Assembly (NCBI GenBank): GCA_050309605.1
Contig: JBNRMN010000064.1
Location: 1 to 64,000, forward strand
Direction: 5' to 3'
DNA length: 64,000 nucleotides
Source of the DNA: Anaerohalosphaeraceae bacterium
GTDB lineage: Bacteria > Planctomycetota > Phycisphaerae > Sedimentisphaerales > Anaerohalosphaeraceae
The notes under the pieces are model-generated. The model had not been told where the DNA came from, searched no databases, and worked only from the letters and a program-made list of their open reading frames with translations. This document shows, in pieces, positions 5,300-52,048 of this stretch (the first letter of the stretch is position 1; each line of letters begins with the position of its first letter). The position numbers and the translations under genes are program-made.

Positions 5300-6529
5300 C
5301 TATTGATGAGCCGGCCCGAGGGAATACAGGGTATAACTGCTTAAGTTAAAGTGACTTAAAATGTCTTCGATGTCATGAACGGTTACCGCTCGAATGAAAT
5401 CAATATCTTGTGCCGTCGAGATATACTCTTGACGATAGACCCAGTTGAAGCCCAGGTTGACCAGCCGTCCCATGGGCTGTTCGCTTTTAAGGGCCACCGA
5501 GCTGAGGACTTTGTTGCGAGCCGACTCCAATTCCTCGGCGGTGATGCCGTCTTTGGCGATCTCGGCAAAAAGTGTATTGAGTATCTGCTCAACCCGATCG
5601 GCGTTTTGGGGATCGCAGCAGATATAGCTGCAAAACGCCCCGGCAGCGTCCATCGAAGCCAACTCCAGAAATGCCGTATCGGCAAGGGCAGGGTCAACCA
5701 ACGACCAGAAATAACGCGAACCGGTACTGTCGCCGAGGATCACGCTGAGCAGCTTGGCCGCGTACCAGCGGTCGTCCTGCATTGAAACAGCCGGGCTGTA
5801 CAAAGCCAGATGCTGTCGGATCAGGCCGGCCTTTTGGTCATACACCTTGTGCGGCTCGCCTTGGTGCGGCGGCAGCAGGCGCGCCGCATCGGATAACGGC
5901 CAGGAGCCGCAGTGCCGTTCGACCTGAAGGCTGAGTTGGTCAAAGTCGAAATGGCCGCAGCAGACCAGTGTGATGTTGTTGGGGGCGTAACGCCGAGCAA
6001 AGTAGCTGCGCATCTGATCGACGGTTAAATCGGTGATGCTCTCGATGGAACCCAGGACGCTGTGGCCGCAGGGATGATCCTTGAAAAACAATTCCCGTCC
6101 GCGATCAAAAACCAGAAATTCAGGCATATCCAAATACATCGCAATTTCTTCGAGAATCACCTGCTTTTCGAGGTCAAAGTCTTCCTTGCGCAGCGAGGGA
6201 CGCATTAATTGCGCCCACAAGGCAGTAACTGCATCGAGGTATTCCGGCAGCACCGCCGCGTAGTAAACGGTATTTTCCTCACTGGTAAAGGCGTTGTATT
6301 TGGCGCCGAGCCGGTCGAAGGCCTCATTGACCTCCAGAGCCGAAAGCGTCTGGGTGCCTTTGAACAGCATATGCTCCAGAAAGTGCGATACACCGCTGAT
6401 TTCCGGCGACTCGTCGCGCGCGCCGGTACGCACGAAAAAGCCCAGCGCCGTCGATTGGGCGGCGGGATTGATTTCGCCGATAAGTGTCAAGCCGTTGTCA
6501 AGCTGTCTGTGTTTGAATTCCATAGGCAT
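5300..6529 (-). CDS. M16 family (pitrilysin/insulinase) zinc peptidase, catalytic subunit
   Basis: HFLEH inverted zinc motif, NAFTS, EKQVILEEI. Confidence 0.92.
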   Translation of the reverse strand: MPMEFKHRQLDNGLTLIGEINPAAQSTALGFFVRTGARDESPEISGVSHFLEHMLFKGTQTLSALEVNEAFDRLGAKYNAFTSEENTVYYAAVLPEYLDAVTALWAQLMRPSLRKEDFDLEKQVILEEIAMYLDMPEFLVFDRGRELFFKDHPCGHSVLGSIESITDLTVDQMRSYFARRYAPNNITLVCCGHFDFDQLSLQVERHCGSWPLSDAARLLPPHQGEPHKVYDQKAGLIRQHLALYSPAVSMQDDRWYAAKLLSVILGDSTGSRYFWSLVDPALADTAFLELASMDAAGAFCSYICCDPQNADRVEQILNTLFAEIAKDGITAEELESARNKVLSSVALKSEQPMGRLVNLGFNWVYRQEYISTAQDIDFIRAVTVHDIEDILSHFNLSSYTLYSLGPAHQ

Positions 6530-7756
6530 CTATACTCGTATCTCTTTGGGGCCGATGGTTACGGCGGTAAAAGTTTCAAAGGGGTGCTGCTTCAAAAAAT
6601 CAAGAACCGAATCGACCGTTAAGCGTTCAATCCCCTGTCGAATTTCCTCCAGCGTGCGCACCCGACCGAGCAGAAAATAATCGCCCGCGATTCCCGCCGA
6701 GCGAGCGCTGGTCGATTCGCTTTTCATAATCAGCGAACTTTTCAGGCCGACTTTGGCCCGCTGCAGCTCATCTTCGGTGACGCCCTCTTGGAGTCGCTGA
6801 AACTGTTCCCATAGGACATCGAAGGTCTGCTGCGCCTTGTCAGGGGTGGTCCCCGCATAACAGGAAATACCGGCGTAATCTCTGAGCGTATGATACCGCG
6901 CCCCGACGGAATAGCACAGGCCGCGTTTTTCACGCACCTCGGCAAACAGCCGGCTGCTCATCCCGCCCGACAAAATCGAAACAGCCGCCATTGTTTCGTA
7001 ATAATAACCCGCCCCGATAGGCGGCATGGCGGTCATCAGCCCGATGTGCACCTGGGCGCCGTCGTTGGGATAATGTGTATAAGACCGCGATCGAACGACC
7101 GGCTTGACCGTCTGCGCCTGTCCGGCGCCAGGCCGACTGAATAGCTGCTCCACACGCCGACAAATCGTTTCACACTCATAATTGCCCGCCACCGAGATAA
7201 TGATTTGCGACGGATTGAATAATTGTCCGGCAATCCGGGCGCATTGGTCGGCGGTCATCGTCAACAACTCAGGTTCTTTGCCCTGGCCGGGACGACCGAA
7301 CGGATCCGGATAAAACTGCTCATACAGCAGCAGCATCACTTTGCTGCGCGGGTCATCATCAAGGCTGTGCAATTCTTCAACCGCCAGCTTGCGCGACAGT
7401 TCAAACTGCGCTGCGTCCAGCCGGGGGGACAACAGGATATCGGCGTACAGGTCCAGGGCCGGCTCCAGATTGCCCGCTTCCAGCGCCGCATTGAACGTCA
7501 GATGGCTGGCGGTGATGGTGGTATTGCGATGGATGCCCAGGCCGTCCAGCGCCTCGACCAGCCGGCGACTGTCGCGGCTTCCCGCGCCGCGGAACAGCCA
7601 GTCGGCCAGAATTGATGCCGCTCCGCAGCAGCCGTCGGGCAGACAGGACGCGCCGCCCGGCGTAAGCATATGAAACGAGGCGGACTGAACATGGTTCATC
7701 CGTTCGCCCACCAGTGTCAAGCCGTTGGATAACTGATAAAAATCCATTTTCGTCAT
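6530..7756 (-). CDS. M16 family peptidase, non-catalytic partner subunit
   Basis: LSNGL start and GGMSSRLFAEVREKRGLCYSV; HxxEH is absent. Start placed at MTKMDF. Confidence 0.85.
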   Translation of the reverse strand: MTKMDFYQLSNGLTLVGERMNHVQSASFHMLTPGGASCLPDGCCGAASILADWLFRGAGSRDSRRLVEALDGLGIHRNTTITASHLTFNAALEAGNLEPALDLYADILLSPRLDAAQFELSRKLAVEELHSLDDDPRSKVMLLLYEQFYPDPFGRPGQGKEPELLTMTADQCARIAGQLFNPSQIIISVAGNYECETICRRVEQLFSRPGAGQAQTVKPVVRSRSYTHYPNDGAQVHIGLMTAMPPIGAGYYYETMAAVSILSGGMSSRLFAEVREKRGLCYSVGARYHTLRDYAGISCYAGTTPDKAQQTFDVLWEQFQRLQEGVTEDELQRAKVGLKSSLIMKSESTSARSAGIAGDYFLLGRVRTLEEIRQGIERLTVDSVLDFLKQHPFETFTAVTIGPKEIRV

Positions 7757-7817
7757 TGTCAATCCGTGATTTTCCTTTCGAACACAGGTATTAACCCATC
7801 CATCCCGTCTATCGGTT

Positions 7818-9197
7818 CTAAACCACCGCCTTGGCAATCTCACGACGGCTGAACACCCACATCCCGAACAGCAGAATCACCGCAGCCTTGACAAACAGTG
7901 TCATTAAAACCGTCATTGCCAAAAACGTTCCCTCAATCAGACGCCCGTTGATGATATAATGCGATGGGTTATAGATGCCGTCAAATTGCGGCAGCATCCA
8001 GAGCACCGGACGCAGGGTAAAGTTGTAAATCAATCCCATGGCCACACCCAGTCCGTCGAACGAGTCAACAATAAACGTATTGGCCGTTCCCGCCAGAAAC
8101 GCGACAAGACAAACCAAAATGGCCACCGGAAACGACAGCCACGTCGTCAGCGAAACCCCCAGCGCCGCCAGAAAGGCCAGCCGCACATAAATCAGAAGCA
8201 GCGACCGGACAAAGTTGCCGGTAAACGTGCCGCTGTGAAACAGCACCTCCACATCGTCAAGAATGACCGTCGTATAATTCAACGATGGATTATTGAAAAA
8301 CGCCACCGACAAAAATCCGTCATCGGCAACGGCGTTGGCCGGAACGGAAAACTCATGATACGTGCGTATCGACGCATCACGCTGCACCTCATAAATGGGC
8401 GTTTCGACTCGATCCAGCCCCGTTTCGATTTGACGCAGGTCCCCGACCCGCCATGTTCCGTAAATTGTGTCGTCCGGCAGCGCCGTGGTCGCCTCGAGCT
8501 TGAAGCGTATAAAAATCATCGCGTCGGAGTCGTCGGGGATTGTGAGCCGAACGCCCCCGAAATCCCATCGCTTGGATCGCCCGGGCGGACAGGACTTGGC
8601 AATCAATCGCTCCTGGGCCAGCAATTCCCGCAAGGCCTGATAATGACTCATGTCGCGCGGAATTTGGCCGCTGTCGCGAAGCATTTTGAACCGTTCTTCA
8701 GCGGATCGGCGCAACTGTTCTTCATCGTAAGTGACCTTCAATCCGGAGCGGGCCGTGTAAAACTCCGCCCGGATGCGCTCGTCCTGCACTTCATCGATTT
8801 CCACCAGCTTCGGAATGGTCAGCGTCAGGCCGTAAATAATCGCGCCGAATACCGCCAGCAGCACGCCGTTCAAAATCAAAATACCGATTAGTTTTCCCGC
8901 GACAACCTGATAGCGGCGGACCGGCTTGGTGACCACCAGATACAGATGGCGGCGTTTGAGATCATTGCTCAGCGTATAGGTGGAAATCGCAATGGTAAGA
9001 ATACACAACAGAAGACTGACCAGTCCGAGACCGTAACTGACAAACGTCTGCAATTTGCCCAGCGGCGTGCCGTCGCCCTCCATCACAACGCTCATCAGCG
9101 GCAGCAGCACAACCAGCAGTACAATGACCGCCAGGGCCACCTTCATCCGAACCGCCTGCGAAAGGGTATTTCGTACAATCGCCCAGAGACTATGCAT
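7818..9197 (-). CDS. ABC-2 type transporter permease with large extracytoplasmic loop
   Basis: Multiple TM helices, VVTKPVRRYQVVAGKLIG motif and FSRREI C-terminus; start at MHSLW after GGAG. Confidence 0.8.
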   Translation of the reverse strand: MHSLWAIVRNTLSQAVRMKVALAVIVLLVVLLPLMSVVMEGDGTPLGKLQTFVSYGLGLVSLLLCILTIAISTYTLSNDLKRRHLYLVVTKPVRRYQVVAGKLIGILILNGVLLAVFGAIIYGLTLTIPKLVEIDEVQDERIRAEFYTARSGLKVTYDEEQLRRSAEERFKMLRDSGQIPRDMSHYQALRELLAQERLIAKSCPPGRSKRWDFGGVRLTIPDDSDAMIFIRFKLEATTALPDDTIYGTWRVGDLRQIETGLDRVETPIYEVQRDASIRTYHEFSVPANAVADDGFLSVAFFNNPSLNYTTVILDDVEVLFHSGTFTGNFVRSLLLIYVRLAFLAALGVSLTTWLSFPVAILVCLVAFLAGTANTFIVDSFDGLGVAMGLIYNFTLRPVLWMLPQFDGIYNPSHYIINGRLIEGTFLAMTVLMTLFVKAAVILLFGMWVFSRREIAKAVV

Positions 9198-10461
9198 TTT
9201 GTTCGTCTCCACTGTCTTGCGGCCGTGTTACCTCCGTGCTGCCGTCGGACTTGCCTTTGCGCTCGATCAAACTCTCAAGCACGTCTTTTTTGACCTTCTC
9301 AATCGGCTCGGTCGGCGTCTGTGGGGCGGCGTCGGTTTTGTCGGTCTCCGGTTCGGCGTCCGGCTTGGCGGCAGTCAATCGGCTCAGGAGACTCTTGTCG
9401 GCCGGAGGTTCCGGTTTCGGTTCCGGCTTGCTTTCCGGCTTGGTTTTTTCAGTGGCCGCCGTCGAGTCCGACGGTTGTTCGTCCGGGGCCACGCGGGCGC
9501 TGACAAGCTGATCCAGCAGCGATTGTGAACGCACCACGGGACGCTCGGCCAAAAAGCCCGTAATCCCCGTACCGACCCCGGCGCCGCTGGTGACCTGTTT
9601 TTCCTGAAGCGCTTTGTTGACGATATTGATAAAATAGGTCTCCAGCTTATCCATCGGACGCCGGACGTCGCAGTCGTGCCCCTCTCGGCGTAAAATATCC
9701 TGAATTTGCTCAAGGGCCGCTTCGCTGAGCCGGCCGGTATGAATCTCGGTCTGATCCTGATGCTGAAGCAACTCTCTGACCGGGCCTTCCACCCGCATCC
9801 TGCCGCCGTACAGAATGCCGATCCGGTCGCAGATATCTTCCACATCGGCCAGCAAATGGCTGCACAGCAAAATGGTCTTGCCGCGCCGCGCCAATTCCGC
9901 CAGCAAATCCTTCATCTGCCGCGTTCCCATCGGGTCCATCCCCGACGTCGGCTCGTCAAGAATCAGCACATCCGGATCGTTAATCAGCGCCTGGGCCAAT
10001 CCGATACGCCGCGCCATCCCCTTGGAAAACGTCCCCACCGGACGATTGCCCATCCCCGCCAAGCCGACCATTTCCAACAGCGTCTCAATACGTTCGTTTC
10101 GCACCTCGCGGGGCAAACCGAAAATCCGACCGTAAAAATCCAGCGTCTCCCGCGCCGTCAGATAGCGATACAGATACGATTCTTCCGGCAGGTAGCCGAT
10201 CCGCGTCGAAATCTCCGGATTATCGCAGTTGCCGCCCAGCACAAACGCCTTGCCTCGGGTCGGATGCAGCAGATTCAGAATCATCTTCAGAGTTGTGGTT
10301 TTGCCCGAGCCGTTCGGCCCCAAAAAACCGTATATCTCATTGTAACGAATCTGAAGATTCAAATCCTCGACCGCGACGACCTTGGCGCGTCCCCACCAGT
10401 CGGGAAAAATCTTGGTCAGTCCAATTGTTTCTATGGCATAAGTGTTTTCATCAGAAACCAC
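9190..10461 (-). CDS. ABC transporter ATP-binding protein with low-complexity C-terminal extension
   Basis: GPNGSGKTT, FSKGM signature, ILDEPTSG, SH switch; P/E/K-rich tail. Confidence 0.93.
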   Translation of the reverse strand: MVSDENTYAIETIGLTKIFPDWWGRAKVVAVEDLNLQIRYNEIYGFLGPNGSGKTTTLKMILNLLHPTRGKAFVLGGNCDNPEISTRIGYLPEESYLYRYLTARETLDFYGRIFGLPREVRNERIETLLEMVGLAGMGNRPVGTFSKGMARRIGLAQALINDPDVLILDEPTSGMDPMGTRQMKDLLAELARRGKTILLCSHLLADVEDICDRIGILYGGRMRVEGPVRELLQHQDQTEIHTGRLSEAALEQIQDILRREGHDCDVRRPMDKLETYFINIVNKALQEKQVTSGAGVGTGITGFLAERPVVRSQSLLDQLVSARVAPDEQPSDSTAATEKTKPESKPEPKPEPPADKSLLSRLTAAKPDAEPETDKTDAAPQTPTEPIEKVKKDVLESLIERKGKSDGSTEVTRPQDSGDEQNA

Positions 10462-10500
10462 AATCGGTCACTCCAAAAATCAAACTGAAACAGTTTCCAT

Positions 10501-12495
10501 TCAAACGGAAAACCCGCTTTCGCTTGCCGCGCCGGTGTGCGGTTCCAGATGTTCGCCGTACCGCACCAGCCGGGCACTGTTGAACACGACGACAACCGCC
10601 CCGCCCAGATGCAGCACCGCCGCCAGAATAACCGGCAGCCAGCCCAGCGCCGAGGCGATAATCCCCATCAGGATAAACAAAATGCCAAAGCCGAGATTCT
10701 GATTGATGACGGTGCGGGTTTTTCGGGATAAGTGCATTAAAAACGGCAGACGCCGCAGGTCGTCGCTCATCAGGGCGATTGACGCCGAATTGATGGCCAC
10801 GTCGCTGCCGGCGGCCCCCATGGCAATGCCCAAATCGCCGGCCGCCAGTGCCGGGGCGTCATTGATGCCGTCGCCGACCACGGCGACAATATGCCCTTCC
10901 TGACGAATCTTTTCCACTACCGCAAGCTTATCCTGCGGCAGACAGTGCGCCTTGTAATCCGTGCAGCCCAGTTCCGCCGAGACCCGATTGGCCACCTCGT
11001 TGCGGTCGCCGGTCAGCATGGTTACGCGGCGGACACGGGAATCGAACAGCTCTTTGACCGCCTGTCTGGCTTCGGGACGGGCTTTGTCCTGAAGACCGAT
11101 CCAGCCGATGCATCGTCCGTCCGCCGCCACATAGAGGGTGCTGAAGCCCTGTTCTTCATGCAGCGACGGATCCGAAACCGTCGAAACATCAATCCCTTTT
11201 TCCTTCAGGAATGTATCACGCCCTACCAGCACAGTCCGGCCGGCCACCGTTGCGGTAACGCCTTTGCCCGGCGTCTCTTCAAAGTGTTCCGCGGGCGTGA
11301 AATGCACATTGGCCTCTTTGGCCAGACTGATGACCGCCCGCGCGGCCGGGTGCTTGCTCATCTGTTCAGCCGAAGCGGTCAAAGCAAGCAAATCCGCCGG
11401 ATCCACCTCCTTGGCCGGCTCGATTTTGGTCACATACAACTGGCCGGTCGTCAGCGTACCGGTTTTGTCGAAGACCACGGCGGTAATCTTGCCGGCGATC
11501 TCCAGCAGCGACACATTTTTAATCAAAATCCCCAGCCGCGCCGCCGCCGACAGGGCCGCGACCATCGCCGTCGGCGTCGCCAGAATCAGCGGGCACGGAC
11601 ACGAAATCACCAGCGCCGAAATAGACCGCGTCATATCCTTGGTAAAGAAATAGATAATCACGCTGATCATCAGCACCGTCGGAATGTACCACTTGACGTA
11701 CTGATCGATCATCCGCATAATCGGAAGCTGCGTCCGTTCGGCGGCCATAATGAGCTGCTGAACTTTACCGAGGGTGGTATCTTTGCCGGCCTTGGTAACC
11801 TCAATATCCAACACGCCGGTCAGATTCGTGGTTCCGGCAAAGACCTGCATCCCGACCACCTTGTCAGCCGGCAGCGATTCGCCGGTAATCGTCGCTTCAT
11901 TGACCGTACTGAGGCCGCGTTTGATTTCGCCGTCAGCCGGGATATTGTCGCCGGGGCGTACGCGCACCACATTGCCGGCCCGCAGCGAACTGACCTTGAC
12001 CTCTTCTTCGACGCCGTCGGCGGTGAGCCGATGGGCCGTCGTGGGCGTCAGCTTAATCAGGGACTCAATGGCCGCCCGCGCCCCCAGGGCCGTTCGCGTC
12101 TCCAGCAGCTCGGCCAGCAGCATAATGAACGCCACCGTCCCGGCCTCCACATACTGGCCGATGGCAAACGCCGCAATCACCGCCAGCGCCACCAGCTCAT
12201 CCATATGCATATGGCCGTGCAAGACGCCTTGGATGGCATGAACGATAATCGGCAATCCCAGCAGCACCGCCCCGGCCATGGCCATCATTTCGCTCAGTTC
12301 CCGACTGGACGCCCCGTACAGCCAGGAAAACAGCGGCAGGTTCACCAAAATGCTGTTGAGAATCAGAATGCCGCCCGCCAGCGTCCCGAACAAGGCCAGA
12401 CTGACGCGCATCTGTTTGCCTTCAGTGGCGGCGTGTTCAGCCAGTGCAGCCTGATCAAACTCCGTCGTCTTGATATTTAGATGCTTATGTCCCAT
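10501..12495 (-). CDS. Heavy-metal translocating P1B-type ATPase
   Basis: TGES, SCPC, DKTGTLT, HP and GDGINDAPAL motifs; no N-terminal CxxC metal-binding domain. Confidence 0.93.
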   Translation of the reverse strand: MGHKHLNIKTTEFDQAALAEHAATEGKQMRVSLALFGTLAGGILILNSILVNLPLFSWLYGASSRELSEMMAMAGAVLLGLPIIVHAIQGVLHGHMHMDELVALAVIAAFAIGQYVEAGTVAFIMLLAELLETRTALGARAAIESLIKLTPTTAHRLTADGVEEEVKVSSLRAGNVVRVRPGDNIPADGEIKRGLSTVNEATITGESLPADKVVGMQVFAGTTNLTGVLDIEVTKAGKDTTLGKVQQLIMAAERTQLPIMRMIDQYVKWYIPTVLMISVIIYFFTKDMTRSISALVISCPCPLILATPTAMVAALSAAARLGILIKNVSLLEIAGKITAVVFDKTGTLTTGQLYVTKIEPAKEVDPADLLALTASAEQMSKHPAARAVISLAKEANVHFTPAEHFEETPGKGVTATVAGRTVLVGRDTFLKEKGIDVSTVSDPSLHEEQGFSTLYVAADGRCIGWIGLQDKARPEARQAVKELFDSRVRRVTMLTGDRNEVANRVSAELGCTDYKAHCLPQDKLAVVEKIRQEGHIVAVVGDGINDAPALAAGDLGIAMGAAGSDVAINSASIALMSDDLRRLPFLMHLSRKTRTVINQNLGFGILFILMGIIASALGWLPVILAAVLHLGGAVVVVFNSARLVRYGEHLEPHTGAASESGFSV

Positions 12496-12558
12496 ACGGT
12501 TTTCTCAATTTGCCTGTCTTTAATCTCAGTTAGTCATCCGTCCGGTCAATTCACGCCT

Positions 12559-13848
12559 TCAGCGGCGTTGAGCGCCCTGTTGGTCGGGCTGCCGGCGTCT
12601 GATCTGCGGATCACGATTGATCAGCACACGAATTTCACGGCTGTGGCCCTCTTGAGACGGTTGAATCACAATCTTTTCGTCCGCGTCGCTGAGCACCTGC
12701 TGAATCGCATTCTGATAAATCTGCTGCAAAACCAGCTCCGGACGCTTGCGATATTCCGGCAGCAGCGCCATCAGATACTCGGCATTGGCCTTGGCCTCTT
12801 CAACCACGCGCATGCGATAGGCCCTTGCTTCGGAAATGACCGTCTGAACCTGACCGGCCAGGTGGCTGACCAGTTCCATCTGTTCTTTGTCTGACAGATC
12901 ACCGTTTCGAAGCTGCTCAAGCAATTGCTCGGCTTGCGGGCCGCCGACATCGGTCAGCAGCCGTTCTTTATATGACGCGGCGTCAATGCGCGCCTGTTCA
13001 CTTTCCTGGCGGGCGCGGTTGGACTCCTGAAATGCAGCGTCAACCTGACGCGGCCAGACGATACGGTCGGCCCGCACAGCGTCGATCTCAATGCCGCTGC
13101 TAATTTCGTCCAGCCTGCGCTGCAGGGTATTTTGGACATCGACGGCGATATCCGAACGGCTTCGCACGGCGTCATCGATACTGTATTTGACCATCGTCGC
13201 CACAATGGCATTGGACGCCAAACTGTTGAGCAGCGGTTCGACCGTCTCCGCGGCGGCGTCCAGCACATCCTCGCCGGGGTTGCGCGGACGGATATAAATC
13301 GATTCGAAGAAATCAATCGGCGAGCGAATACGATACGTAATCGTCCAGCGCGAATGAACAATATTGTAATCCGTACCGGCCAGTCCCGTCTGCTGGTCGT
13401 TTCGGGTCAGACAGTAGCCGTCCCGAAGCGGATTGAGCGGTCCGGTGACCATCCGCGGCGGCGTTCGCCCCAACCGCTCCTGTTCGGTCTCAAAATACCA
13501 GAACGAATCGAGATTCAGTGTCTGCACGCGCTGAACGGGAATGCGAATCACCTCGCTGATCGGTTCGGGAAACGCAAATTTCAAACCCGGCCGCAGAATG
13601 CGATGTTCCCCTTCACCCCGAAATCGGCCGAACTGAAGCACCAGCGCCTCTTCATCCGGCTGAACGCGAAACACACCGCTGACCGCAAACAAGACGATCA
13701 GCAGCACCATAATGACCTTCAAAATCGTAAAACTGACCCGCAATGCATTGGTCAGCGATTGACCGGCCGCATCCAGATCGTCAAACGTCGGCGAGGGGGT
13801 TTCCTGCGGCTCAGGACCTGCGGGATGAGGTTCATGTGTATGTGCCAT
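12559..13848 (-). CDS. SPFH/Band 7 protein, HflK-like
   Basis: Single TM, VQPDEEALVLQFG, PGLKFAFPEPI, VWPRQVDAAF and a coiled-coil C-terminus. Confidence 0.85.
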   Translation of the reverse strand: MAHTHEPHPAGPEPQETPSPTFDDLDAAGQSLTNALRVSFTILKVIMVLLIVLFAVSGVFRVQPDEEALVLQFGRFRGEGEHRILRPGLKFAFPEPISEVIRIPVQRVQTLNLDSFWYFETEQERLGRTPPRMVTGPLNPLRDGYCLTRNDQQTGLAGTDYNIVHSRWTITYRIRSPIDFFESIYIRPRNPGEDVLDAAAETVEPLLNSLASNAIVATMVKYSIDDAVRSRSDIAVDVQNTLQRRLDEISSGIEIDAVRADRIVWPRQVDAAFQESNRARQESEQARIDAASYKERLLTDVGGPQAEQLLEQLRNGDLSDKEQMELVSHLAGQVQTVISEARAYRMRVVEEAKANAEYLMALLPEYRKRPELVLQQIYQNAIQQVLSDADEKIVIQPSQEGHSREIRVLINRDPQIRRRQPDQQGAQRR

Positions 13849-13862
13849 AACAATCCTGCCTG

Positions 13863-14765
13863 TTAATTCTCGGTTTCTTTGGGCTGAAGTTTGGGCAGTT
13901 CTTTGAGCAGATGGATCGGCTCGGTTTCCACGCCCAGCACAATCGTACTGCGTTCTTTCAGAATCCTGCGAAGCGCCTCGATATCACGCAGAAACATCGC
14001 CAGTTCCGGGTCGGCCTCAAGCATTTGATAATACTTGGCCGCTTCGGCATCCCCGTCGCCGCGAATGGATTTGGCCTGCGATTCGGCCACCGCCAGCAGC
14101 TCCTGCCGCATGGCGTCGGCTTCACTGCGAATGGCTTCGGCCTCCGAGTTGCCCGCGGCCAAAATCGACTCCGTGCGGCCTTTGCGGTCAGCCCGCATTC
14201 GATCAAACACCTTTTCGGTCACACTCTCATTGATCATCAGACGTTTGATACCGACGGTCTGAATTTCCATTCCATACTGACTTAACGCATGGCCGGCAAT
14301 TTCCGTCTGCATCTCCGATTCAATTGCTTCAAACTTAATCCGCCCCGGATCGGTGTTCACAAAATCACTGAAATAATACCGGCCAATAACGGAGTTTTGT
14401 GCGTTACGGAGCAGACTGCGAAGTTTCCCTTCGGCACTGCGCTTGTCCTGCACCGACACAAGATAGCGCTCCGGATCGGCAATCCGCCACACCACATAAC
14501 TGTTGACAATAATCGGTTCGTTGCCCGCGGTATTGGTCTCTTCAAGGACGCCTTCATATAACCGGCTCCGCGAATCAAAGCGATGAACCCGATCAATCGG
14601 CAGCGGATACTTTAAGTACAGTCCCGGCGCGGTAATGGGACGTACGGGCTTGCCGAATCGCGTGACGATGACGGTTTCGGTTTCGCGCACCTGAAAAACC
14701 ACTGCAAACAGTGTCAGTACCAGCACCACCAGTGCGACGCTCAAAAACACCCAAAAATTCTTCAT
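13863..14765 (-). CDS. hflC: SPFH protein, HflC-like protease modulator
   Basis: VRETETVIVTRFGKP, PGLYLKYPLP, VFDRMRADR, IRGDGDAEAA. Confidence 0.85.
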   Translation of the reverse strand: MKNFWVFLSVALVVLVLTLFAVVFQVRETETVIVTRFGKPVRPITAPGLYLKYPLPIDRVHRFDSRSRLYEGVLEETNTAGNEPIIVNSYVVWRIADPERYLVSVQDKRSAEGKLRSLLRNAQNSVIGRYYFSDFVNTDPGRIKFEAIESEMQTEIAGHALSQYGMEIQTVGIKRLMINESVTEKVFDRMRADRKGRTESILAAGNSEAEAIRSEADAMRQELLAVAESQAKSIRGDGDAEAAKYYQMLEADPELAMFLRDIEALRRILKERSTIVLGVETEPIHLLKELPKLQPKETEN

Positions 14766-14856
14766 ACCTCGTTTCCCTTATATGAATTCAACACCAGTCT
14801 GTCTTCTGTTTCGTTTCAACGTTCAACCACGTCGTTTTTTTGTCGTCGGTCGGAGC

Positions 14857-16920
14857 TTATTGATCGTCCAGCCCCAAATCAAGATCATACAGCGACGGCA
14901 TCAGCCGCTCCTGGAGATCCACGATAAAGACCTGAGCGTCCTGCGGATCGGCAACCACAACATACTTGCGAATCTTTTCCAGCGACTCTTCCAGCGTCGC
15001 CAGACGCAGCAATCGCGGATACAGCTCCGGTGCGGCCGTATAGGCCTTAAGCTGCCCGCCGAAACGCAGCCCTTCCCCCCGCGCCTCATTGATCCGCACA
15101 AACGCATCGGCCTCGGCCAATCGGAGCGTCTTGAACACCTGACCGCGCGCAGCGCTGAATGATTCCCTCAGATCAACCCGCAACGCCTCGGCTTGTGCCG
15201 TGTCGCCCTGCTCACGAGCCTGCCCGAATGCCAGCGCTTTTTGGTACAACTCGTTGACCCGGTCAATCGAACCGGCCAATTCCGTCAAGACCCGGTTGCT
15301 CTCGGCACGGGCATTCAGCACACTGGCCTGACGATTCTGAATCGCCGCGATGACTTCCTGATACTCCGGCACCACCTGCGGCGGCGGATGAATCCCCTGA
15401 AGACCAAGGAACACGATCTCGACGCCCAGTCCGGCGTTATCGGCCGCATTTTGAATCCGGCGATGCAGCTCGCGAGACGCCTCAAGACGCCCTTCTCCCA
15501 GCAGATTCTTGCCGATTGGCGAGATCACCCCCGGCCGTGCCCGATCCTCTGCTTCGACTTTGGAACCGGCCACAAAACGCACCAGTTCACGATAACAGAT
15601 CGCTTCCAGGATTTGTTCCGGCGTCTCGTGGTTATACAGGTAATCCCGAAGATTACGGATTCGGTATTGAATCGGAATATTGGCCCGAATAATACTGACC
15701 GGCACAACTCCTTCTTCGTCTGCGGTTTCAGACTGAGCGGCCGCCAGCAGGTCATATTCCTCAAGATAATGCTCTTCGCCCCACAACAGGGGTTTTCGTC
15801 TGGCCTCATCCGTATCCTCGATGCGATAGCCGACGGTAATTTCCTGAATCTTGTCTGTCGGATACACATAGGCGATTTCAATTGGCCAGGGCCACTTCAG
15901 CGACATACCGGGGCCGATGGTTCGTCCACCTCGATCCGGCTGGGGCGAACCGAACCGCTCAACGATTGCCATTTGACCCGGGCCAATCACCACCAACGAA
16001 CTGATACAATACATGGTCACCGCCGCAAACAGAATCAACGGCAGAATCGCACGCTCCAGCAGCTTGTAAAACCACGTCTGAGAAACCTGAAAACCGAATT
16101 GATAATCGATGGTGTGAGCAATGGTATGCAGAAAACCGCCCGGTTCGCTGAACAGCCCCAACAGCCGGCTGTCAAAAGCCGCCCGGCTGTATTGACCGGC
16201 GACACGCGGCCGATAGACATCGAAAATGGTGTTCAAAATCGTTTCGGTCCCCAGCACAATCAGCAGGCCCGGAACCAGGATTTCGACAAATCGCAGAAAA
16301 ACGCCGTATTTAAACTGTGCCAGCGCCAGTCCGACTGCCAGCAGGAAACCGATGACCGCCCCGGCCAGTAAATAGCTGCCCCCCGCCCGCAGCGGCTTCC
16401 AGTCCGTCTGGCTGCTCATCCCCGACGCAAAACGGCTGAACAAGAACAGCAAAAACGCCACCACCACCATCAACACCGCCCCCAGCAGCGGATTGGCCGG
16501 CGACCATTCAACGACACCGAAGACTTTGTTTTGATAAAGGAATATGCCGACGAGAATCTCATAGACGGCAAGGGCAACGCCGGCCAGAGGAAGAAACCAT
16601 TTTTCCAGCGTCGCCAAACGTTTCTGGGCAACCGCCATCAAAGCCGCCCGGTCGCCGCCGGATGAAAAAATCGTCTTCTGCCGGTCGGTTTTGGCAAGCT
16701 GGGCCATATCCAGCTTTTCCTGCTCAGCCCGCGTCCGATGCTTGAACTGGATCAGCAGCATCAGCCACATCACCACAGAGGCCAGCATCAGCCAACTGAA
16801 CAGATAAATACCCAGCACCTCCTGAAACACACCGAGCAAAAGCGTACTAACGAAAAAGACAAAACTGACAAGTAATGCGATAAGTGAAACCGTTTCGGCC
16901 TTCCTCGACGATCCTGTCAT
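14857..16920 (-). CDS. SPFH protein (HflK-like) fused to a multi-TM N-terminal domain
   Basis: About 7 hydrophobic segments, then IVERFG, PGMSLKWPWPIE and GIHPPPQV. Confidence 0.82.
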   Translation of the reverse strand: MTGSSRKAETVSLIALLVSFVFFVSTLLLGVFQEVLGIYLFSWLMLASVVMWLMLLIQFKHRTRAEQEKLDMAQLAKTDRQKTIFSSGGDRAALMAVAQKRLATLEKWFLPLAGVALAVYEILVGIFLYQNKVFGVVEWSPANPLLGAVLMVVVAFLLFLFSRFASGMSSQTDWKPLRAGGSYLLAGAVIGFLLAVGLALAQFKYGVFLRFVEILVPGLLIVLGTETILNTIFDVYRPRVAGQYSRAAFDSRLLGLFSEPGGFLHTIAHTIDYQFGFQVSQTWFYKLLERAILPLILFAAVTMYCISSLVVIGPGQMAIVERFGSPQPDRGGRTIGPGMSLKWPWPIEIAYVYPTDKIQEITVGYRIEDTDEARRKPLLWGEEHYLEEYDLLAAAQSETADEEGVVPVSIIRANIPIQYRIRNLRDYLYNHETPEQILEAICYRELVRFVAGSKVEAEDRARPGVISPIGKNLLGEGRLEASRELHRRIQNAADNAGLGVEIVFLGLQGIHPPPQVVPEYQEVIAAIQNRQASVLNARAESNRVLTELAGSIDRVNELYQKALAFGQAREQGDTAQAEALRVDLRESFSAARGQVFKTLRLAEADAFVRINEARGEGLRFGGQLKAYTAAPELYPRLLRLATLEESLEKIRKYVVVADPQDAQVFIVDLQERLMPSLYDLDLGLDDQ

Positions 16921-17102
16921 AACCTATTTCCCAATTTTTCGTGAACTGATTCGGTCTTGTTTTACTATGGTTAAGGAAGAAAACTATACGCCATACGATG
17001 CAAAATGCAAGCAGCGGCTTTACAAAATTGGTAATTTACGTAAAATTGCATCATATACGGTTTAATTCCTTCAGTACAGAACTATTTTTTTAAGGATAAA
17101 AC

Positions 17103-18110
17103 GTGCTTAATCGACTGCTGATTATCGCAAAAAACACCTTCATCGAGACGCTGCGGCAACCCGTTTATGCGATTATTATCGCTTTCGCGCTGCTTCTGAT
17201 GGTCCTGGCACCGACCATCAGCATGTACACCCTTGATGAAGACATTAAACTCCTCCGCGAATTAGGCCTTTCTACGCTGTTTCTGGCCGGTTTGTTCATT
17301 GCGGTTTTTTCGGCTACCGGCGCCATCACGGAGGAAATCGAAACCGGAACCATCACCACCGTGCTGTCCAAACCCATCAGCCGTCCGGTGTTCGTTGTCG
17401 GCAAATTCGTCGGCCTGACCGGAGCGGTCACGCTGGCCCACCTGATTGGTATGCTGGCCTATCTGATGGCCGTGCGGCACGGAGTGCTCGAACGTGCCTC
17501 CGATGAAGTGGACTGGACCGTTATCGCTGCCGGCGGCGGCGCCATTTTGATAACGATTGCTTTAACTGCTTTTTTGAACTATGTTTATGACTGGCATTTT
17601 TCAGCTACCGGCATCACACTTGCGGCGGTTTCACTGGGAACGGGGGTGCTTTTTCTTGCAGTAGTAGATAGTGAATGGAAGATAAATCCAGCCGGAAATG
17701 AATTCCAGGCTTTCGATATTTACGCCTCGATTCTGCTGCTGCTGGCATTGATCACCATCGTCGCTCTGGCGGTCTTGTTCTCGACACGTTTCAATGTGGT
17801 GGTCACATTAACCTGCTGTGTCGGGGTGTTTTTGCTGGGTCTGATCAGCGACTGGGTATTCGGACGATTTGCCGCCCGCAGCCTGAGCGACCCGGCCTAT
17901 GAACTGTTCGACCAAATCGGCATCCTCTTGGCGCGCGTCGGAACGGTGCTCGTTCCGAACCTGCAAATCTACTGGGTCAGCGACGCCATCTACGAAACCG
18001 GTGTCGTCCCGGCCGGCTACCTGCTCATCGCACTGGGTTATACCGCCTTCTACACCGCCGGCATCCTTGCCCTGTCCATTGCCTTCTTCCAGAAACGCCA
18101 AATTGGATAA
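17103..18110 (+). CDS. ABC-2 type transporter permease
   Basis: IAKNTFIETLRQP, EEIETGTITTVLSKPISRPVFVVGKFVG and FQKRQIG; multi-TM. Confidence 0.85.
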   Translation: MLNRLLIIAKNTFIETLRQPVYAIIIAFALLLMVLAPTISMYTLDEDIKLLRELGLSTLFLAGLFIAVFSATGAITEEIETGTITTVLSKPISRPVFVVGKFVGLTGAVTLAHLIGMLAYLMAVRHGVLERASDEVDWTVIAAGGGAILITIALTAFLNYVYDWHFSATGITLAAVSLGTGVLFLAVVDSEWKINPAGNEFQAFDIYASILLLLALITIVALAVLFSTRFNVVVTLTCCVGVFLLGLISDWVFGRFAARSLSDPAYELFDQIGILLARVGTVLVPNLQIYWVSDAIYETGVVPAGYLLIALGYTAFYTAGILALSIAFFQKRQIG

Positions 18111-18861: not shown

Positions 18862-20999
18862 TTAAGGTTCAAGCCAATGGGCGGACAGGACGGCCAGATC
18901 AAGCAAATCCACCCGACCGTCGCAGTTGAGGTCTCCGGGCTGGAGCGGACCCCAAAGGCCGATATATACTGAAGCGTTTTCGCCGGCCACAGTAAATCGC
19001 CCGCCGGCAACCAGGTGGCTGCCAAAGGGCAGCAGCGCAAAGACGCGATCACTCGTACCGCTGCCGAGAGGCTGCCACACTCGGCCATCCCATCGGGCGG
19101 TATAATTGGTCGTATTTCCTGCGGATCGATAAAAAAGCCCGCCGGCAAACAGATGTGTATGCATCGCGGCCAGACTATACACGTGTGAGTTAACGCCGGC
19201 CCCGACAGGCTGCCAGGAAGCGCCGTCCCACTGGGCAATATTGCTGACCGGCGTAGCCACTGTCCCCGGCGCACTGGTGAATTCACCACCGGCAATCAGA
19301 TGGCCGTCATAGACGGTCAGGGCGTGGACTTTGGCGTTGAGACCTCCGGCGGCCGGCTGCCAACCTGAACCGTTCCATCGCGCCACATACATGGCCGTAT
19401 CAAAACCGGCGCCGGTAAAGTCGCCGGCTGCAACCAATTCATTGTCATAGACCGCCAGCGCACGCACACTGTTGTTGGTGCCAAACCCCAGCGCCTCCCA
19501 CGAAAGCCCGTCCCACGCTGCGATAAAATCGGCAAAAACCGGGCCGCCGACCACGGAGAAATCGCCCCCGGCGATCAGCTTGCCGTCATAAATCGCCAGC
19601 GATCGAACGGTTGCATTGGCGCCGCCGCCCAAAGGCTGCCAGAAGGTCCCATTCCACCAGGCAACGTAGCCCGTAAAGTCGCCCCCGGCGACAAGGACGC
19701 CATGATAGACAATCAGCGCGTGGACAACGCCGTCAATTTCGGCGCCCAGCGGATGCCAGAGGGCGCCGTCCCAGCGCGCCACATAAGAGGCCGATTCGTC
19801 GCCGATTGACGTAAAATTTCCGCCGGCGATCAGATCGCTGTCGTATCGGGTCAACGCATTGACATAGGCTTGCGTTCCGGCATAAAACAACCCCTTACCG
19901 AGCGTCTGCCACGTCAGGCTGTCCCAGCTTGCCACATAGTTGGCGGCGGTCTCGCCGACAGCGGTAAAGCTGCCGGCGCTGATGAGTCGGCCGTTGTAGG
20001 TGGTCAGCGTTTCAACCCGTGCATTGGCGCCCGAGCCGACAGACTGCCACGATGCGCCGTCCCATCGGGCAGCCCCCCGGCCGTGGTGAAATCACCGCCG
20101 GCGACCAGTTCATCGGCATAAACGGTCAGAGCACGAACGGTCGAATTCATCCCCGAACCAAACGATTGCCATGCGGCGCCGTCCCAGCGAGCAATGTAAG
20201 AAAACGACGTAACGCCGAATTTGGAAAATTCGCCGCCGGCAACCAGTTGGCCATCATACGTCGTCAGGGCACGAACTCTGCCGTTTGCGCCGTCGCCGTA
20301 AGCGGACCAATCCAAACCATTCCATCGGGCGATATAGTTGACGGTATTTCCGCCGGCCGTGGCAAAGTTACCGCCGGCGACCAGATGACCGTCGTGCACA
20401 TGCAGGGCATAGACATAGCTGCTCATACCGAGTCCCAGTGTCTGCCACGAAAAGCCGTTCCATTGAGCGATATAGTTCGTTGCAGCGCCGCCTGCGGTGG
20501 TAAATATGCCGCCGGCAATCAGCCGCGGCCCGAATACGGCCAGCGTATAGACATCTGAATTCATTCCCGTCGCCAGCGGCTGCCAAGTGGCGCCGTCCCA
20601 GCGAGCGATGCGATTGCAGGACAACGCGCCGGCTGTGGTAAATGAGCCGCCCGCGATCAACTGGCCGTTAAAGACGGCCAGCGCATAGACCTGTCCGTTC
20701 ATACCGGCGCCGAGCGATGACCAGGCCGTACCATCCCAAACGGCGATGTTATTGGCCGTCGTTGACCCGGCCATTGAAAAATTGCCCCCAACAACCAAAA
20801 CTTCCGACGCCGGCCCGGCGCCGTCGGGATCCCACCGGAAAACCACATTGACCGTGCCGTTCAAACCCGGAATGCCATTGCCCAACAGCCACTGTTCGGG
20901 ACATTGGGCGCCGATCGGTTCAACGAGCACCCCCTGCATCGCAACGCCTGCGAGCAGAGCGGCAAGAATGAAACGTGATTGATTTGATAATTTAGACAT
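18862..20999 (-). pseudogene. Secreted WDG-repeat beta-propeller protein with C-terminal dockerin-like motif, frameshifted near 20071
   Basis: ORFs 20004..20999 and 18862..19935 carry the same ~47-aa repeat (GGxFTxAG..xxIARWDGxxWxxLG). The repeat continues in another frame across about 20070. Signal peptide at the start and GDLNCDGRVDLLDL at the end. Confidence 0.8.
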
Positions 21000-21941: not shown

Positions 21942-22184
21942 GTTTGTTATTTTGATTTTTTTCCGAATTCGCAAAATGCGGGCGCTTTTACTGTATATCT
22001 TGAATTGCCCCCGTCATCTTGTCGTGGTATAATTCCACCTGTTTTATAGTCGTGTCCTCCGCTTTTATCCGATTCATATTTTATGAAGACGGTGCGGCAC
22101 TTTGTTTTAGACAAGAATCGTCTTTTTAGAGTTCATCTGACGGCCGCGACAAGAAATCCTTGGCACAAAAGAATGAGGTGTACC

Positions 22185-23777
22185 ATGGAACGACGAAAAC
22201 GCGTGATGCAGCGGTCAATGCGGCTGGGGCATTGTGTTTGCGACCCCAAGCAGCCGTGTCCGTGCGATCTGTTCAAAGAGAAAAATATCTGTCTCTGCGC
22301 CGGTGAACGGCTGGACGAGCCAACCGGTCCGGTCGCCCTGACGCAGCTTGTGGAAAAGGCCGGCTGCGCCTCGAAGATCGACCAGGCCTTCCTCAAAGAC
22401 GTGCTCCGCGACCTGCCCGACCCCGCCGATCCGCGCGTGCTGGTCGGCACGGCCGCCGGCGATGATGCGGGCGTCTATGAACTGCCGGACGGGACGTGTC
22501 TGGTGCAAACGGTGGATGTGTTCACGCCGTCGGTCGATGATCCGTATCTGTTCGGCCAGGTCGCCGCGGCCAATTCCGTCAGCGACGTCTATGCCATGGG
22601 CGGCACGCCGCTGACGGCGCTGTCGGTCATTGGTTTTCCCGTAAGGCAAGTCCCTGACGCCGTGATGACCGACATCCTCCGCGGCGGCATCGACAAAATG
22701 CACGAAGCCGGCGTCTCGGTTATCGGCGGACACAGCATCAACGACAGCCAGCTCAAGGCCGGCTTTGCCGTAACCGGCGTGGTGGATAAACACCGCATCT
22801 TTACTAACGCCGGCGTCAAACCGGACGACGTGCTTATCCTGACCAAACCGCTGGGCACTGGGATCGTGGCCTTTGCCGCTCAAATCCGGAAAGCCGCCGC
22901 ACAAAGCCTTCAGGCCGCAGCCGAGTCGATGACGCAATTGAACAAAACCGCCGCCGAATTGATGATTCAGCACAATGCCCATGCCTGCACTGACGTTACG
23001 GGCTTTAGCCTGATGGGACACCTGGCGGAAATGGCTCTGCGCAGCGGCGTAGATGTCGAGGTGTGCTGGGACCACATCCCCCTGCTGGACGGGGTTTTGG
23101 ATTATGTTGCGGCGGGTATCCTGCCCGGCGGCATCGAACGCAACAAGGAATCCTGCGGCCATGCCGTCTTCCGCGACGCCGACGTCAGCGAACTGATGGA
23201 GGATATGCTCTATGACCCGCAGACGTCCGGCGGCCTGCTGATCGCTGTCGGGCCGGACAATGCCGATGCCCTGCTCAAAAGTCTGCACAATGCAGGTATC
23301 ACCGCCGCAGCAGCCATCGGGCAAGCAGCCGCCCCCGGCACCGGCCGCATCCGTCTGCGAACTGACCATAGCCGTCCCCGTACTGAAGCGGATAAATCCC
23401 CGGAACAAATCGCTTCCCATCAAAGCACCCCCCAATCCGTTCAATCGACTGAACCTGCCGCCGCATCGCAGGAATGCTGCTGTCCGTCATCTACAGCAAG
23501 TCCCCCGGTCGGGATGGAGGCGACGTTTCAGCAGTTTCTGGCCTCGGCCGGTCGTCCCGGCGGACTGGATGCGGTGACCAAACAGGCTGTCAATATCGCC
23601 CTGAGCGTCCTGACCCGATGCGAACCGTGTCTGCAGATTCATCTGAAAAAGGCTCAACAAATGGGATTTTCGCAGGCCGAAATCGACGAGGCCGCCTGGC
23701 TGGGTATTGCATTCGGCGGCTCACCGGCTATGATGTTCTATAAGTCAACAAGTGAAAAGGTAAAAGGTAAAAGGTAA
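22185..23777 (+). CDS. selD: Selenide, water dikinase SelD with N-terminal Cys-rich (FTR-like) and C-terminal CMD/AhpD domains
   Basis: LTQLVEKAGCASKI, DDAGVY, QTVDVFTP, ANSVSDVYAMGG, GGHS, TDVTGFSLMGH, DPQTSGGLL; RBS GAGGTG before ATG 22185. Confidence 0.93.
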   Translation: MERRKRVMQRSMRLGHCVCDPKQPCPCDLFKEKNICLCAGERLDEPTGPVALTQLVEKAGCASKIDQAFLKDVLRDLPDPADPRVLVGTAAGDDAGVYELPDGTCLVQTVDVFTPSVDDPYLFGQVAAANSVSDVYAMGGTPLTALSVIGFPVRQVPDAVMTDILRGGIDKMHEAGVSVIGGHSINDSQLKAGFAVTGVVDKHRIFTNAGVKPDDVLILTKPLGTGIVAFAAQIRKAAAQSLQAAAESMTQLNKTAAELMIQHNAHACTDVTGFSLMGHLAEMALRSGVDVEVCWDHIPLLDGVLDYVAAGILPGGIERNKESCGHAVFRDADVSELMEDMLYDPQTSGGLLIAVGPDNADALLKSLHNAGITAAAAIGQAAAPGTGRIRLRTDHSRPRTEADKSPEQIASHQSTPQSVQSTEPAAASQECCCPSSTASPPVGMEATFQQFLASAGRPGGLDAVTKQAVNIALSVLTRCEPCLQIHLKKAQQMGFSQAEIDEAAWLGIAFGGSPAMMFYKSTSEKVKGKR

Positions 23778-23852: not shown

Positions 23853-23949
23853 GGAGGTGACAGGCAACCGGTGTTGCTCCTGGTCTTCAAAACCAGTGTG
23901 GGGCGGCGATCCCGTCCCGGGTGGGTTCGACTCCCATTCGCCTCCGCCA
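23853..23949 (+). tRNA. selC: tRNA-Sec(TCA)
   Basis: 8-bp acceptor stem GGAGGTGA/TCGCCTCC, 6-bp D stem, CTGGT-CTTCAAA-ACCAG anticodon arm, long variable arm and GCCA end; adjacent to selD. Confidence 0.95.
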
Positions 23950-49766: not shown

Positions 49767-49781
49767 AGATGCAACCTCAAC

Positions 49782-49927
49782 ATATCGACATCCGAAATCC
49801 GAACAGCGAAACACGTTCGAATATCAGAATGCTTCATGCTCAAATCAACGCCCCTGCTTATCTCTGTCTTTGGGGAGTTTAATCGTGTGATTTTGTTTCG
49901 TATTTCGTGTTTTGGGCTTCGACATTT
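49782..49927. repeat. Imperfect inverted heptamer-repeat element
   Basis: Left arm atatcga-catccga-aatccga-acagcga-aaca; right arm tgtt-tcgtatt-tcgtgtt-ttgggct-tcgacat. Confidence 0.6.
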
Positions 49928-50228
49928 ACTTTTGAAACTGCGGCAGCTTGTCCAGATACTTTTCCGGGTTGCTGGTAAATTCCGCTTCGCAGCCGGGACA
50001 GCAGAAATAAACTTTCTTGCCCTCGTACTCAACAAAGAGATTTTTGTTAATGGGGGCATCCATCACGGGACACATCGTCTGTTCAACGGCGTTTTTTGCT
50101 GATTGAGCCGCCTGATGAGCCATGTGGTCATGTCCGGCATGGTCGTCATTGTTTTTGCTGCAGCCGACAAACGTACCGACGGCAACCATCAGAGTCAATA
50201 CACCAAAAATTTTCATTGCTGTCTTCAT
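49926..50228 (-). CDS. YHS-domain lipoprotein (putative periplasmic metal chaperone)
   Basis: Lipobox FVGC, His-rich linker, CPVM...VYFCCPGC..F..NPEKY. Confidence 0.85.
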   Translation of the reverse strand: MKTAMKIFGVLTLMVAVGTFVGCSKNNDDHAGHDHMAHQAAQSAKNAVEQTMCPVMDAPINKNLFVEYEGKKVYFCCPGCEAEFTSNPEKYLDKLPQFQK

Positions 50229-50249
50229 TGTCGTATCCTTTCCATAACG

Positions 50250-52022: not shown

Positions 52023-52048
52023 GTATATGTTTGAAAAAATCTGCCTGA

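Follow-up and report, generated by a model that had tools for sequence, protein, structure and literature searches.

A conserved seven-gene membrane module of Phycisphaerae combines three HflK/HflC-family proteins with a P1B pump and an ABC-2 transport system

In Escherichia coli, the SPFH proteins HflK and HflC form a membrane cage around FtsH. The accessible text of PMC13220708 describes residues R141, E142 and R185 of E. coli HflK as contacting FtsH, and the P-type ATPase MgtA as an FtsH substrate. Despite the many structures that have appeared since 2022, the contents of bacterial SPFH cages besides FtsH are an open question. Scaffolding of metal pumps is described in mycobacteria, where P1B pumps of M. 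tuberculosis require co-encoded membrane scaffolds, the PacL proteins (accessible part of PMC13460109). Here we analyze a stretch of 64,000 nucleotides (the window) from an Anaerohalosphaeraceae bacterium (assembly GCA_050309605.1, contig JBNRMN010000064.1), in which three consecutive SPFH genes, hereafter the trio, are followed by genes for a P1B ATPase (the pump), an ABC ATPase and a permease.

Our analysis revealed that these genes belong to a seven-gene membrane module conserved in Phycisphaerae (Planctomycetota), which consists of a six-gene operon and a divergent ABC-2 permease gene. We propose, with a probability of roughly 40%, that an HflK/C-type cage formed by the trio acts on, or in concert with, the CPC-type P1B pump of the same operon, and also with the ABC-2 exporter. 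An operon of trio, pump and exporter hints at what bacterial SPFH scaffolds may hold.

Gene order and operon structure of the module

Genes were called from a listing of open reading frames (ORFs), Pfam and NCBIfam scans, and hydropathy (Table 1). The initial annotation of the window had described six minus-strand genes and a divergent permease gene; the ORF listing and the Pfam/NCBIfam scans confirmed all seven positions. The synteny sample was drawn from species-representative genomes scanned with an alignment of the 687-residue SPFH protein (the anchor): at least 600 stretches matched, at least 583 with a relative, and the best 80 were examined. These loci are metagenome-assembled genomes labelled Phycisphaerae, Sedimentisphaerales, Anaerohalosphaeraceae, Planctomycetota or “Pirellulales”, with the exceptions of L068 (“uncultured bacterium”) and one Candidatus Aegiribacteria. 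Counts were made by tblastn with the window proteins. Each denominator gives the loci with room for the gene, and a gene was counted when it was in place and co-oriented with the anchor or, for the divergent permease, when it was divergent and adjacent.

The arrangement was kept almost without exception. HflC lies beside the anchor in 71/71 loci, and HflK and the pump gene are in place in 69/69 and 59/59, respectively. The ABC ATPase (57/58), the 464-residue permease (54/55) and the divergent permease (71/72, the single miss being a partial match in L055, chromosome CP070830.1) are nearly as constant. Colinear order was found in 79 of the 80 loci, the exception (L070) being due to the HflK query cross-matching the fused paralog; in L024, one additional gene stands between HflK and the pump. 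Anchor identity across the examined loci is 45–82%, and the order is kept nonetheless. Flanking genes turn over between loci while the core order stays, even at 45–50% protein identity. Recurring in nearly all related loci with room for it, the arrangement goes well beyond what chance would give. The initial annotation had named synteny as a test, with loss of gene order counting against a functional link; order is strongly kept across the examined relatives. The pump is the best-conserved protein (median identity to the window 69%), followed by the ABC ATPase (58%), the divergent permease (55%), HflC (52%), the fused HflK (50%), HflK (46%) and the 464-residue permease (42%).

The six minus-strand genes are spaced like one operon. 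The median gaps between successive genes are -4, 22, 38, 40.5 and -32 bp; in 58 of 60 loci, no more than 100 bp separate HflK from the pump gene, and in the window 14 bp lie between the genes for HflC and HflK. A promoter/terminator scan found no terminator-like sites in the intergenic gaps of the operon. Such tight spacing suggests co-translation of a single message.

The named closest relatives of the 687-residue protein all come from Phycisphaerae or Planctomycetota, the best being 96% identical, and the same holds for those relatives of the fused HflK that bear names in a more distant subfamily, around P0130 (about 35% identical). Other genes of the window are consistent with this placement, namely those for a sulfatase, PEP-CTERM proteins, prepilin-like N_methyl proteins and Laminin_G_3 proteins. 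The Candidatus Aegiribacteria label belongs to L018 (JAIVYN010000014.1), which has the same cluster start, and numerous loci are tagged “uncultured Pirellulales” although their proteins group among Phycisphaerae relatives. Both labels are likely binning or labelling errors.

Table 1. Coordinates of the module genes and adjoining features in the window
Feature	Position	Strand	Remarks
Polytopic HflK-type SPFH protein (fused HflK), 687 aa	16920..14857	-	Operon gene 1; Band_7 at residues 311-540; ~7 hydrophobic segments N-terminal to Band_7
CDF-like N-terminal domain alone, residues 1-308	15997..16920	-	Six transmembrane helices, conserved loop, seventh helix (TM7)
HflC, 300 aa	14765..13863	-	TIGR01932 140.3 bits vs cut-off 134.4; single N-terminal transmembrane helix
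HflK, 429 aa	13848..12559	-	TIGR01933 129.7 bits, below cut-off 159.4; single transmembrane helix at ~residues 40-62
P1B ATPase (pump), 664 aa	12495..10501	-	TIGR01525 569.1 bits vs cut-off 346.25; E1-E2_ATPase and Hydrolase domains
ABC ATPase, DrrA/ABC-2 type, 423 aa	10461..9190	-	ABC_tran 1.2e-30; TIGR01188 219 bits, below cut-off
ABC-2-like permease, 464 aa	9212..7818	-	Weak ABC2_membrane matches, all below gathering score (PF12679 23.3 vs 27.2 bits)
Second ABC-2 permease, 335 aa	17103..18110	+ (divergent)	PF12679 39.2 bits vs cut-off 27.2
Divergent intergenic region, 182 bp	16921..17102		Conserved boxes
GNAT acetyltransferase, 150 aa	18199..18651	-	Acetyltransf_1 3.4e-16; same orientation as operon

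The HflK/HflC trio and its fused N-terminal domain

PF01145 matches all three SPFH proteins (E = 5.6e-13, 5.7e-25 and 1.1e-18 for the proteins of 687, 300 and 429 residues, respectively). HflC clears its NCBIfam equivalog cut-off, and HflK is the best NCBIfam model for both remaining proteins, each of which stays below the cut-off (Table 1; 96.2 bits for the 687-residue protein). Hydropathy indicated one N-terminal anchor in HflC and in the 429-residue HflK, and about seven segments in the 687-residue protein. In tblastn, E. coli HflC matched the 300-residue gene best (2e-21), and E. coli HflK matched the genes for 429 (7e-12, best) and 687 residues (6e-11); a Foldseek search with the C-terminal part of the 687-residue protein gave HflK at the top. 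We also built a quick maximum-likelihood tree of 30 rows with IQ-TREE, for which three long-branched E. coli proteins served as references. The sequences of each paralog form a clade of their own (99–100), and QmcA lies outside on a long branch. The 300-residue clade joins E. coli HflC (SH-aLRT 95, with these thin references), and both HflK-type clades join E. coli HflK, at an unresolved node (SH-aLRT 87). Judged by these family matches, the trio is best assigned to the genuine HflK/HflC family, as one HflC and two HflK-type proteins.

The initial annotation had called the cluster “FtsH-less”. Indeed, neither ftsH nor hflX lies in the window: the FtsH and HflX families were absent among the 41 window ORFs scanned with Pfam, and tblastn with E. 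coli FtsH and HflX gave no match at E ≤ 1e-5 in the window and the 80 loci (about 1.3 Mb). As a meaningful trait, however, the label is not supported. In E. coli K-12, the hflKC genes map to 4.40 Mb, where they follow hfq and hflX, and ftsH maps to 3.33 Mb; hflKC is normally unlinked to ftsH, and therefore an “FtsH-less” window of 64 kb carries no weight. Nor is the trio set apart from the FtsH-associated family, since it groups with E. coli HflK and HflC, which is one half of a result that the annotation had itself named as speaking against its proposal. The FtsH-contact residues R141, E142 and R185 of E. coli HflK align with Q109, T110 and N208 of the 429-residue HflK, an alignment that is unreliable at about 22% identity.

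The 687-residue protein differs from the other two by its N-terminal domain (residues 1–308), in which six helices are followed by a cytoplasmic segment and, ahead of the SPFH domain, by another helix. A cytoplasmic loop at about residues 234–289 (YRPR...DSRLLG...EPGG...DYQFGF) is the most conserved part of the whole protein, and its invariant residues Y236, P238, S251, Q274-F275-G276 and W283 are kept even in distant relatives. A profile search with the domain found 977 cluster representatives (counted at 50% identity) at E ≤ 0.001 among 1.84 billion, 537 of them at E ≤ 1e-30. The matches are mostly 630–870 residues long, and the shorter ones are apparently fragments, such as P0196, whose C-terminal end is the beginning of an HflK domain. 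Fusion to Band_7 was found in 71/71 sampled relatives of the domain. No longer fused forms of the 687-residue protein (1204–3435 residues) were found, which is weak evidence, and a protein-atlas search with residues 1–305 gave scores of 0.80 only, leads without value.

Several observations relate this domain to transporters of the cation diffusion facilitator (CDF) family. Pfam Cation_efflux is matched by 11/71 relatives (E ≤ 0.01, best 3.9e-6), and no other membrane family matches more than one of the 71. P0196, at 30.6 bits, scores above the gathering score of 26.6, and precomputed PF01545 annotations were present on 4/120 relatives. A structure model of the domain alone (pLDDT 73.3, pTM 0.71) retrieved CDF transporters, among them ZnT7, YiiP, ZnT3, ZnT1 and ZnT4, in 14 of the first 15 Foldseek rows, with SLC30A10 lower in the list. 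An LRAGxSYLxG segment of the domain family aligns with the CDF signature of transmembrane helix 5 (TM5). We located in E. coli FieF and ZitB the TM2 and TM5 positions that we take to form site A, the CDF metal site. In the window protein, these positions are occupied by L44, S48, Y183 and G187, so the ligands are not kept; across the domain family, they are H (29/71), G (60/71), Y (53/71) and N (35/71).

Taken together, there is moderate evidence for a resemblance to the CDF membrane domain with loss of the metal ligands. We consider it probable that the six helices of the N-terminal part derive from a CDF protein and have lost the CDF mode of metal binding. Because the metal-binding residues are lost, the domain is less likely to pump than to act as an adaptor or sensor, and the conserved loop together with HflK probably stands in for the usual cytoplasmic domain of CDF proteins.

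Transport genes and surroundings of the module

The pump has the core domains of a P-type ATPase with DKTGT (VFDKTGTLT in translation), and its PDB matches are near-equal: CopA (1e-99), sCoaT (SPC-type, 1.5e-96) and ZntA (6e-90). No HMA domain was detected in it by Pfam. We counted alignment columns over 62 pump sequences, from the window and 61 loci. N600, C299-P300-C301 of TM4 (CPC), and H629 of TM6 are invariant in 62/62 sequences. TM6 reads A-A-x-L-H-[FL]-x-[GS]-[SA], and the His-rich N-terminus is conserved as M-[AVG]-H-x-H-[LI]-[HG]. The TM5 and TM6 sequences that we take to be the signatures of the Cu and Zn types are not visible in the alignments of the pump with CopA and ZntA. According to the motifs in the accessible text of PMC13460109, the CPC of TM4 is that of the Cu and Zn groups, and not SPC, PCP, SCA or CSC. 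The P1B-6 motif N-x18-H-N-x-(S/T), taken from the same portion of PMC13460109, is absent from the pump, where N600 and H629 are 28 residues apart. The pump stands outside the described subgroup signatures, and its metal is likely a divalent or soft one.

The initial annotation had also read two His-rich starts as a clue to a metal role. The start of the pump is conserved and, with the CPC motif and the CDF-like domain, strengthens the link to metal; the MAHTHEPH start of the 429-residue HflK is not conserved, and that half of the argument fails. A complex prediction of the pump (664 residues) with the N-terminal domain (308 residues), made without controls, scored 0.01 against a mark of 0.32 and speaks neither for nor against binding.

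By family, the ABC ATPase and the ABC-2 membrane subunits are predicted to form an ABC-2 type exporter. The ATPase has a low-complexity C-terminal tail of about 120 residues rich in Pro, Glu, Lys and Asp (window 9190–9560, minus strand), which is probably variable, because ortholog lengths range from 345 to 464 residues. The 464-residue permease has a large non-hydrophobic insert at about residues 140–330. The second permease, described in the annotation as related to it, is homologous only over the first ~110 residues (28% identity, E 9e-6) and not beyond. The sole NCBIfam match of the permeases is GldF-like and weak.

In 72 aligned divergent intergenic regions (median 179 bp), TTGTAAAG and GTTATATTACA occur in 80–99% of sequences. 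These boxes are probably promoter elements, or they may be bound by a regulator. The window has a promoter-like site at 17019–17046, and the promoter-like count of the whole region is not above chance. We looked in this region for the operator of a metal regulator and found conserved boxes, but no clear palindrome.

Among the flanking genes, an M16 peptidase gene pair (7843..5300) after the operon was rejected as part of the module, since it is present in the window and L001 only. The ORF family of the GNAT acetyltransferase was found in 57/80 loci at a median position of -1722 bp, upstream, and its membership of the module is uncertain. In 47 loci, the 464-residue permease is followed by a protein of ~595 residues without a Pfam match (for example L003:18908-20689, plus strand), which could be an optional eighth member of the module; it has no counterpart in the window, where the M16 pair occupies that position. 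Upstream, on the opposite strand, 20–34 of the 80 loci have a fatty-acid-synthesis-like block (for example L077:913-6324) with genes for seryl-tRNA synthetase, two ketoacyl synthases, two FabA-like dehydratases and an acyl carrier protein; the block is absent from the window. Anti-phage defence was considered with PADLOC and rejected, as 6/7 module proteins had no match and the ABC ATPase matched only generic ATPase models.

Further genes of the window were recorded. About 30 kb from the operon lies a second metal-export locus, a heavy-metal RND efflux set (46227–53338, minus strand) composed of an outer-membrane factor (52049–53338), a CusB/HlyD-like adaptor with HMBD and YHS domains (50250–51980), a small YHS protein (49926–50228) and an AcrB/CusA-like pump (46227–49814). 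Upstream of the GNAT gene are two beta-propeller proteins (DUF5122/Rax2-like; 18862–20999, minus strand), one with a dockerin-like end; the 80 loci gave no tblastn match to the one used as query (18862–19935). An AIR-synthase-family protein fused to a carboxymuconolactone-decarboxylase-like domain (22083–23777, plus strand) is probably a relative of selenophosphate synthetase, and a tRNA-Sec gene (23853–23945, 74 bits) lies directly downstream of it.

Possible roles of the module and comparison with known systems

In the mechanism that we favor, HflC and the two HflK-type proteins would co-assemble into one periplasm-facing ring or cage of the HflK/C type, in which the six-helix domain of the fused HflK, with its invariant loop on the cytoplasmic side, would serve as a docking or sensing surface. 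The assembly may hold the pump and the ABC exporter in one membrane patch, govern their turnover or stability, or do both, and it would probably act together with an unlinked FtsH rather than instead of it. The pump would probably export a divalent or soft metal. We infer physical contact of the SPFH proteins with the pump or the ABC system. Functional coupling of the trio to metal export is plausible and now better founded, and the presence of a second metal-transporter-like element, the CDF-like domain, in the same operon as the pump counts in its favor. Precedents are MgtA, a P-type ATPase degraded as an FtsH substrate, and the P1B pumps of M. tuberculosis with their PacL scaffolds. A bolder form of the idea, which we consider unlikely, takes the fusion as a Rosetta stone: the CDF-derived, ligand-less domain would recruit the P1B pump, and perhaps the ABC-2 exporter, into the cage, whose periplasmic SPFH dome would enclose the pump outlet; the cage could act without FtsH. 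If true, the module would provide the first case of a bacterial SPFH cage whose transporter clients are defined genetically.

Several results weigh against our proposal. The signature of the pump matches no described P1B subgroup. In L077, the trio and the pump are kept and other genes stand at the positions of both ABC genes. The synteny counts cover the nearest relatives, the best 80 of at least 583, all of one class, and operons conserved with unrelated functions exist, E. coli hflK-hflC following hfq and hflX being an example. The CDF link in particular is thin in direct comparisons. The Foldseek E-values are 0.015 to 0.2, none ≤ 0.001, and the best TM-score is 0.49/0.52. Probabilities from hhalign are 0.3–12.5% (with the narrow domain profile, 1.8% for E. 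coli ZitB and 0.3% for FieF), and the narrow profile gave one chance-level match only among PDB sequences. NCBIfam gives one weak CDF match among seven relatives, and the 687-residue window protein itself has no Pfam Cation_efflux (PF01545) match.

The same results can be read in other ways. That HflC is above its equivalog cut-off and that the trio groups with E. coli HflK and HflC also suit ordinary FtsH modulators, with HflC, HflK and a lineage-specific extra HflK serving an unlinked FtsH, while the pump and the ABC transporter would be neighbors by vertical inheritance in a historical super-operon, without shared function or contact. The hflKC genes of E. coli likewise share an operon with unrelated genes far from ftsH; the 80 loci come from one class, so shared ancestry accounts for part of the synteny; and the flanks vary, as seen for the M16 pair and the ~595-residue protein. 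What makes this account somewhat unlikely to us is that the core order survives 45–50% protein identity while these flanks turn over, that the tight spacing suggests a single co-translated message, and that SPFH proteins with no role in transport would leave the transporter-like domain of the extra HflK difficult to account for.

The opposite position is that of the initial annotation, in which an FtsH-independent SPFH cage scaffolds the pump and a heteromeric ABC exporter in a metal-handling microdomain. Conserved synteny and operon spacing agree with it, as do the absence of ftsH from the surrounding 10 kb in all 80 loci, the presence of two different permeases with one ATPase gene, and the replaced FtsH-contact residues, the latter in the unreliable alignment mentioned above. 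Against this, an ftsH gene unlinked to hflKC is the normal state, the proteins belong to the FtsH-associated HflK/HflC family, and the His-rich HflK start is not conserved; we judge FtsH independence in this form quite improbable. An envelope or lipid module, in which the HflK/C assembly remodels the membrane, the ABC-2 system exports a lipid or envelope component and the pump is a passenger, is very unlikely, even though scramblase activity of HflK/C is reported in the accessible portion of PMC13220708, the permeases' only NCBIfam match is to a GldF-like family, and the fatty-acid-synthesis-like block lies upstream in ~30/80 loci. No partner is as constant as the pump (59/59), and L077 shows that loss of the ABC genes does occur; the fatty-acid block is missing from the window; and the likeness of the fused domain is to metal rather than lipid transporters.

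If the physical link that we propose exists, the module provides a defined client set for purification and imaging, and the idea of a scaffolded metal-efflux platform, known from mycobacterial PacL-Ctp, would be extended to SPFH proteins. The clade offers two genetic clues to the contents of the cage, namely an HflK fused to a transporter-like domain and a tight conserved operon with a pump and an ABC exporter. Should the association prove purely historical, what remains is a large undescribed HflK subfamily, that of the 977 cluster representatives. Full-text literature searches that did not extend to subscription journals yielded no description of an SPFH-P1B/ABC operon or a CDF-HflK fusion, and the words “ABC” and “ATPase” do not occur in the accessible text of a 2009 survey of prokaryotic SPFH operons (PMC2636767).

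A loose parallel to the module is found at the qmcA-ybbJ (SPFH-NfeD) locus of E. coli K-12 (L082; NC_000913.3, 505000-520000), which is divergent to the iron ABC exporter genes fetAB and lies directly beside cueR, 3 kb from the P1B gene copA. In contrast to our module, the qmcA locus has a different SPFH subfamily, an NfeD partner and no single operon; moreover, QmcA faces the cytoplasm. The parallel with fetAB and copA is perhaps a coincidence.

The pump resembles P1B-1, P1B-2 and P1B-4 ATPases (CopA 3rfu, ZntA 4umv and sCoaT 7qbz) in its core P-type domains, DKTGT, the CPC of TM4 and about eight hydrophobic helices, and differs from them in lacking an HMA domain and in its short conserved His-rich N-terminus. 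The His of TM6 is invariant as in SPC-type pumps, yet it occurs with CPC instead of SPC. The N-terminal domain of the fused HflK shares with CDF proteins (YiiP/FieF, ZitB and ZnT) a six-helix membrane domain with both termini predicted on the same side. Unlike CDF proteins, it has its TM2/TM5 ligands replaced and lacks the cytoplasmic C-terminal domain, in place of which stand the loop, the seventh helix and HflK.

The PacL-Ctp “effluxosomes” offer a conceptual likeness. There, an upstream co-encoded scaffold stabilizes the P1B pump and clusters it in membrane patches (accessible part of PMC13460109), and here too genes lie upstream of a P1B pump. In that text, PacL proteins are small, cross the membrane once and bind a metal-binding domain at the N-terminus of the pump. 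The upstream genes of our module, in contrast, encode SPFH proteins, and the pump has no N-terminal metal-binding domain; no homology is implied. Membership of the module in the PacL-Ctp group was rejected, as Pfam detected no PacL-type protein and no HMA or other metal-binding domain.

The closest described system is the E. coli HflK/HflC-FtsH complex (PDB 7vhp/7vhq, 7wi3 and 9cz2). As in E. coli, the trio consists of SPFH/Band_7 proteins with an N-terminal membrane anchor, encoded by adjacent hflK-type and hflC-type genes, and the top sequence and fold matches as well as the tree grouping connect them with HflK and HflC. Unlike the E. coli system with its two subunits, the module encodes three, one HflK paralog carries a polytopic N-terminus of ~300 residues, and both HflK-type proteins fall below the equivalog cut-off. 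The trio shares its operon with a P1B pump and an ABC-2 system, where E. coli has hfq and hflX. Apparently, the module is an undescribed variant of the HflK/C system with three subunits, a transporter-like fusion and fixed transporter partners.

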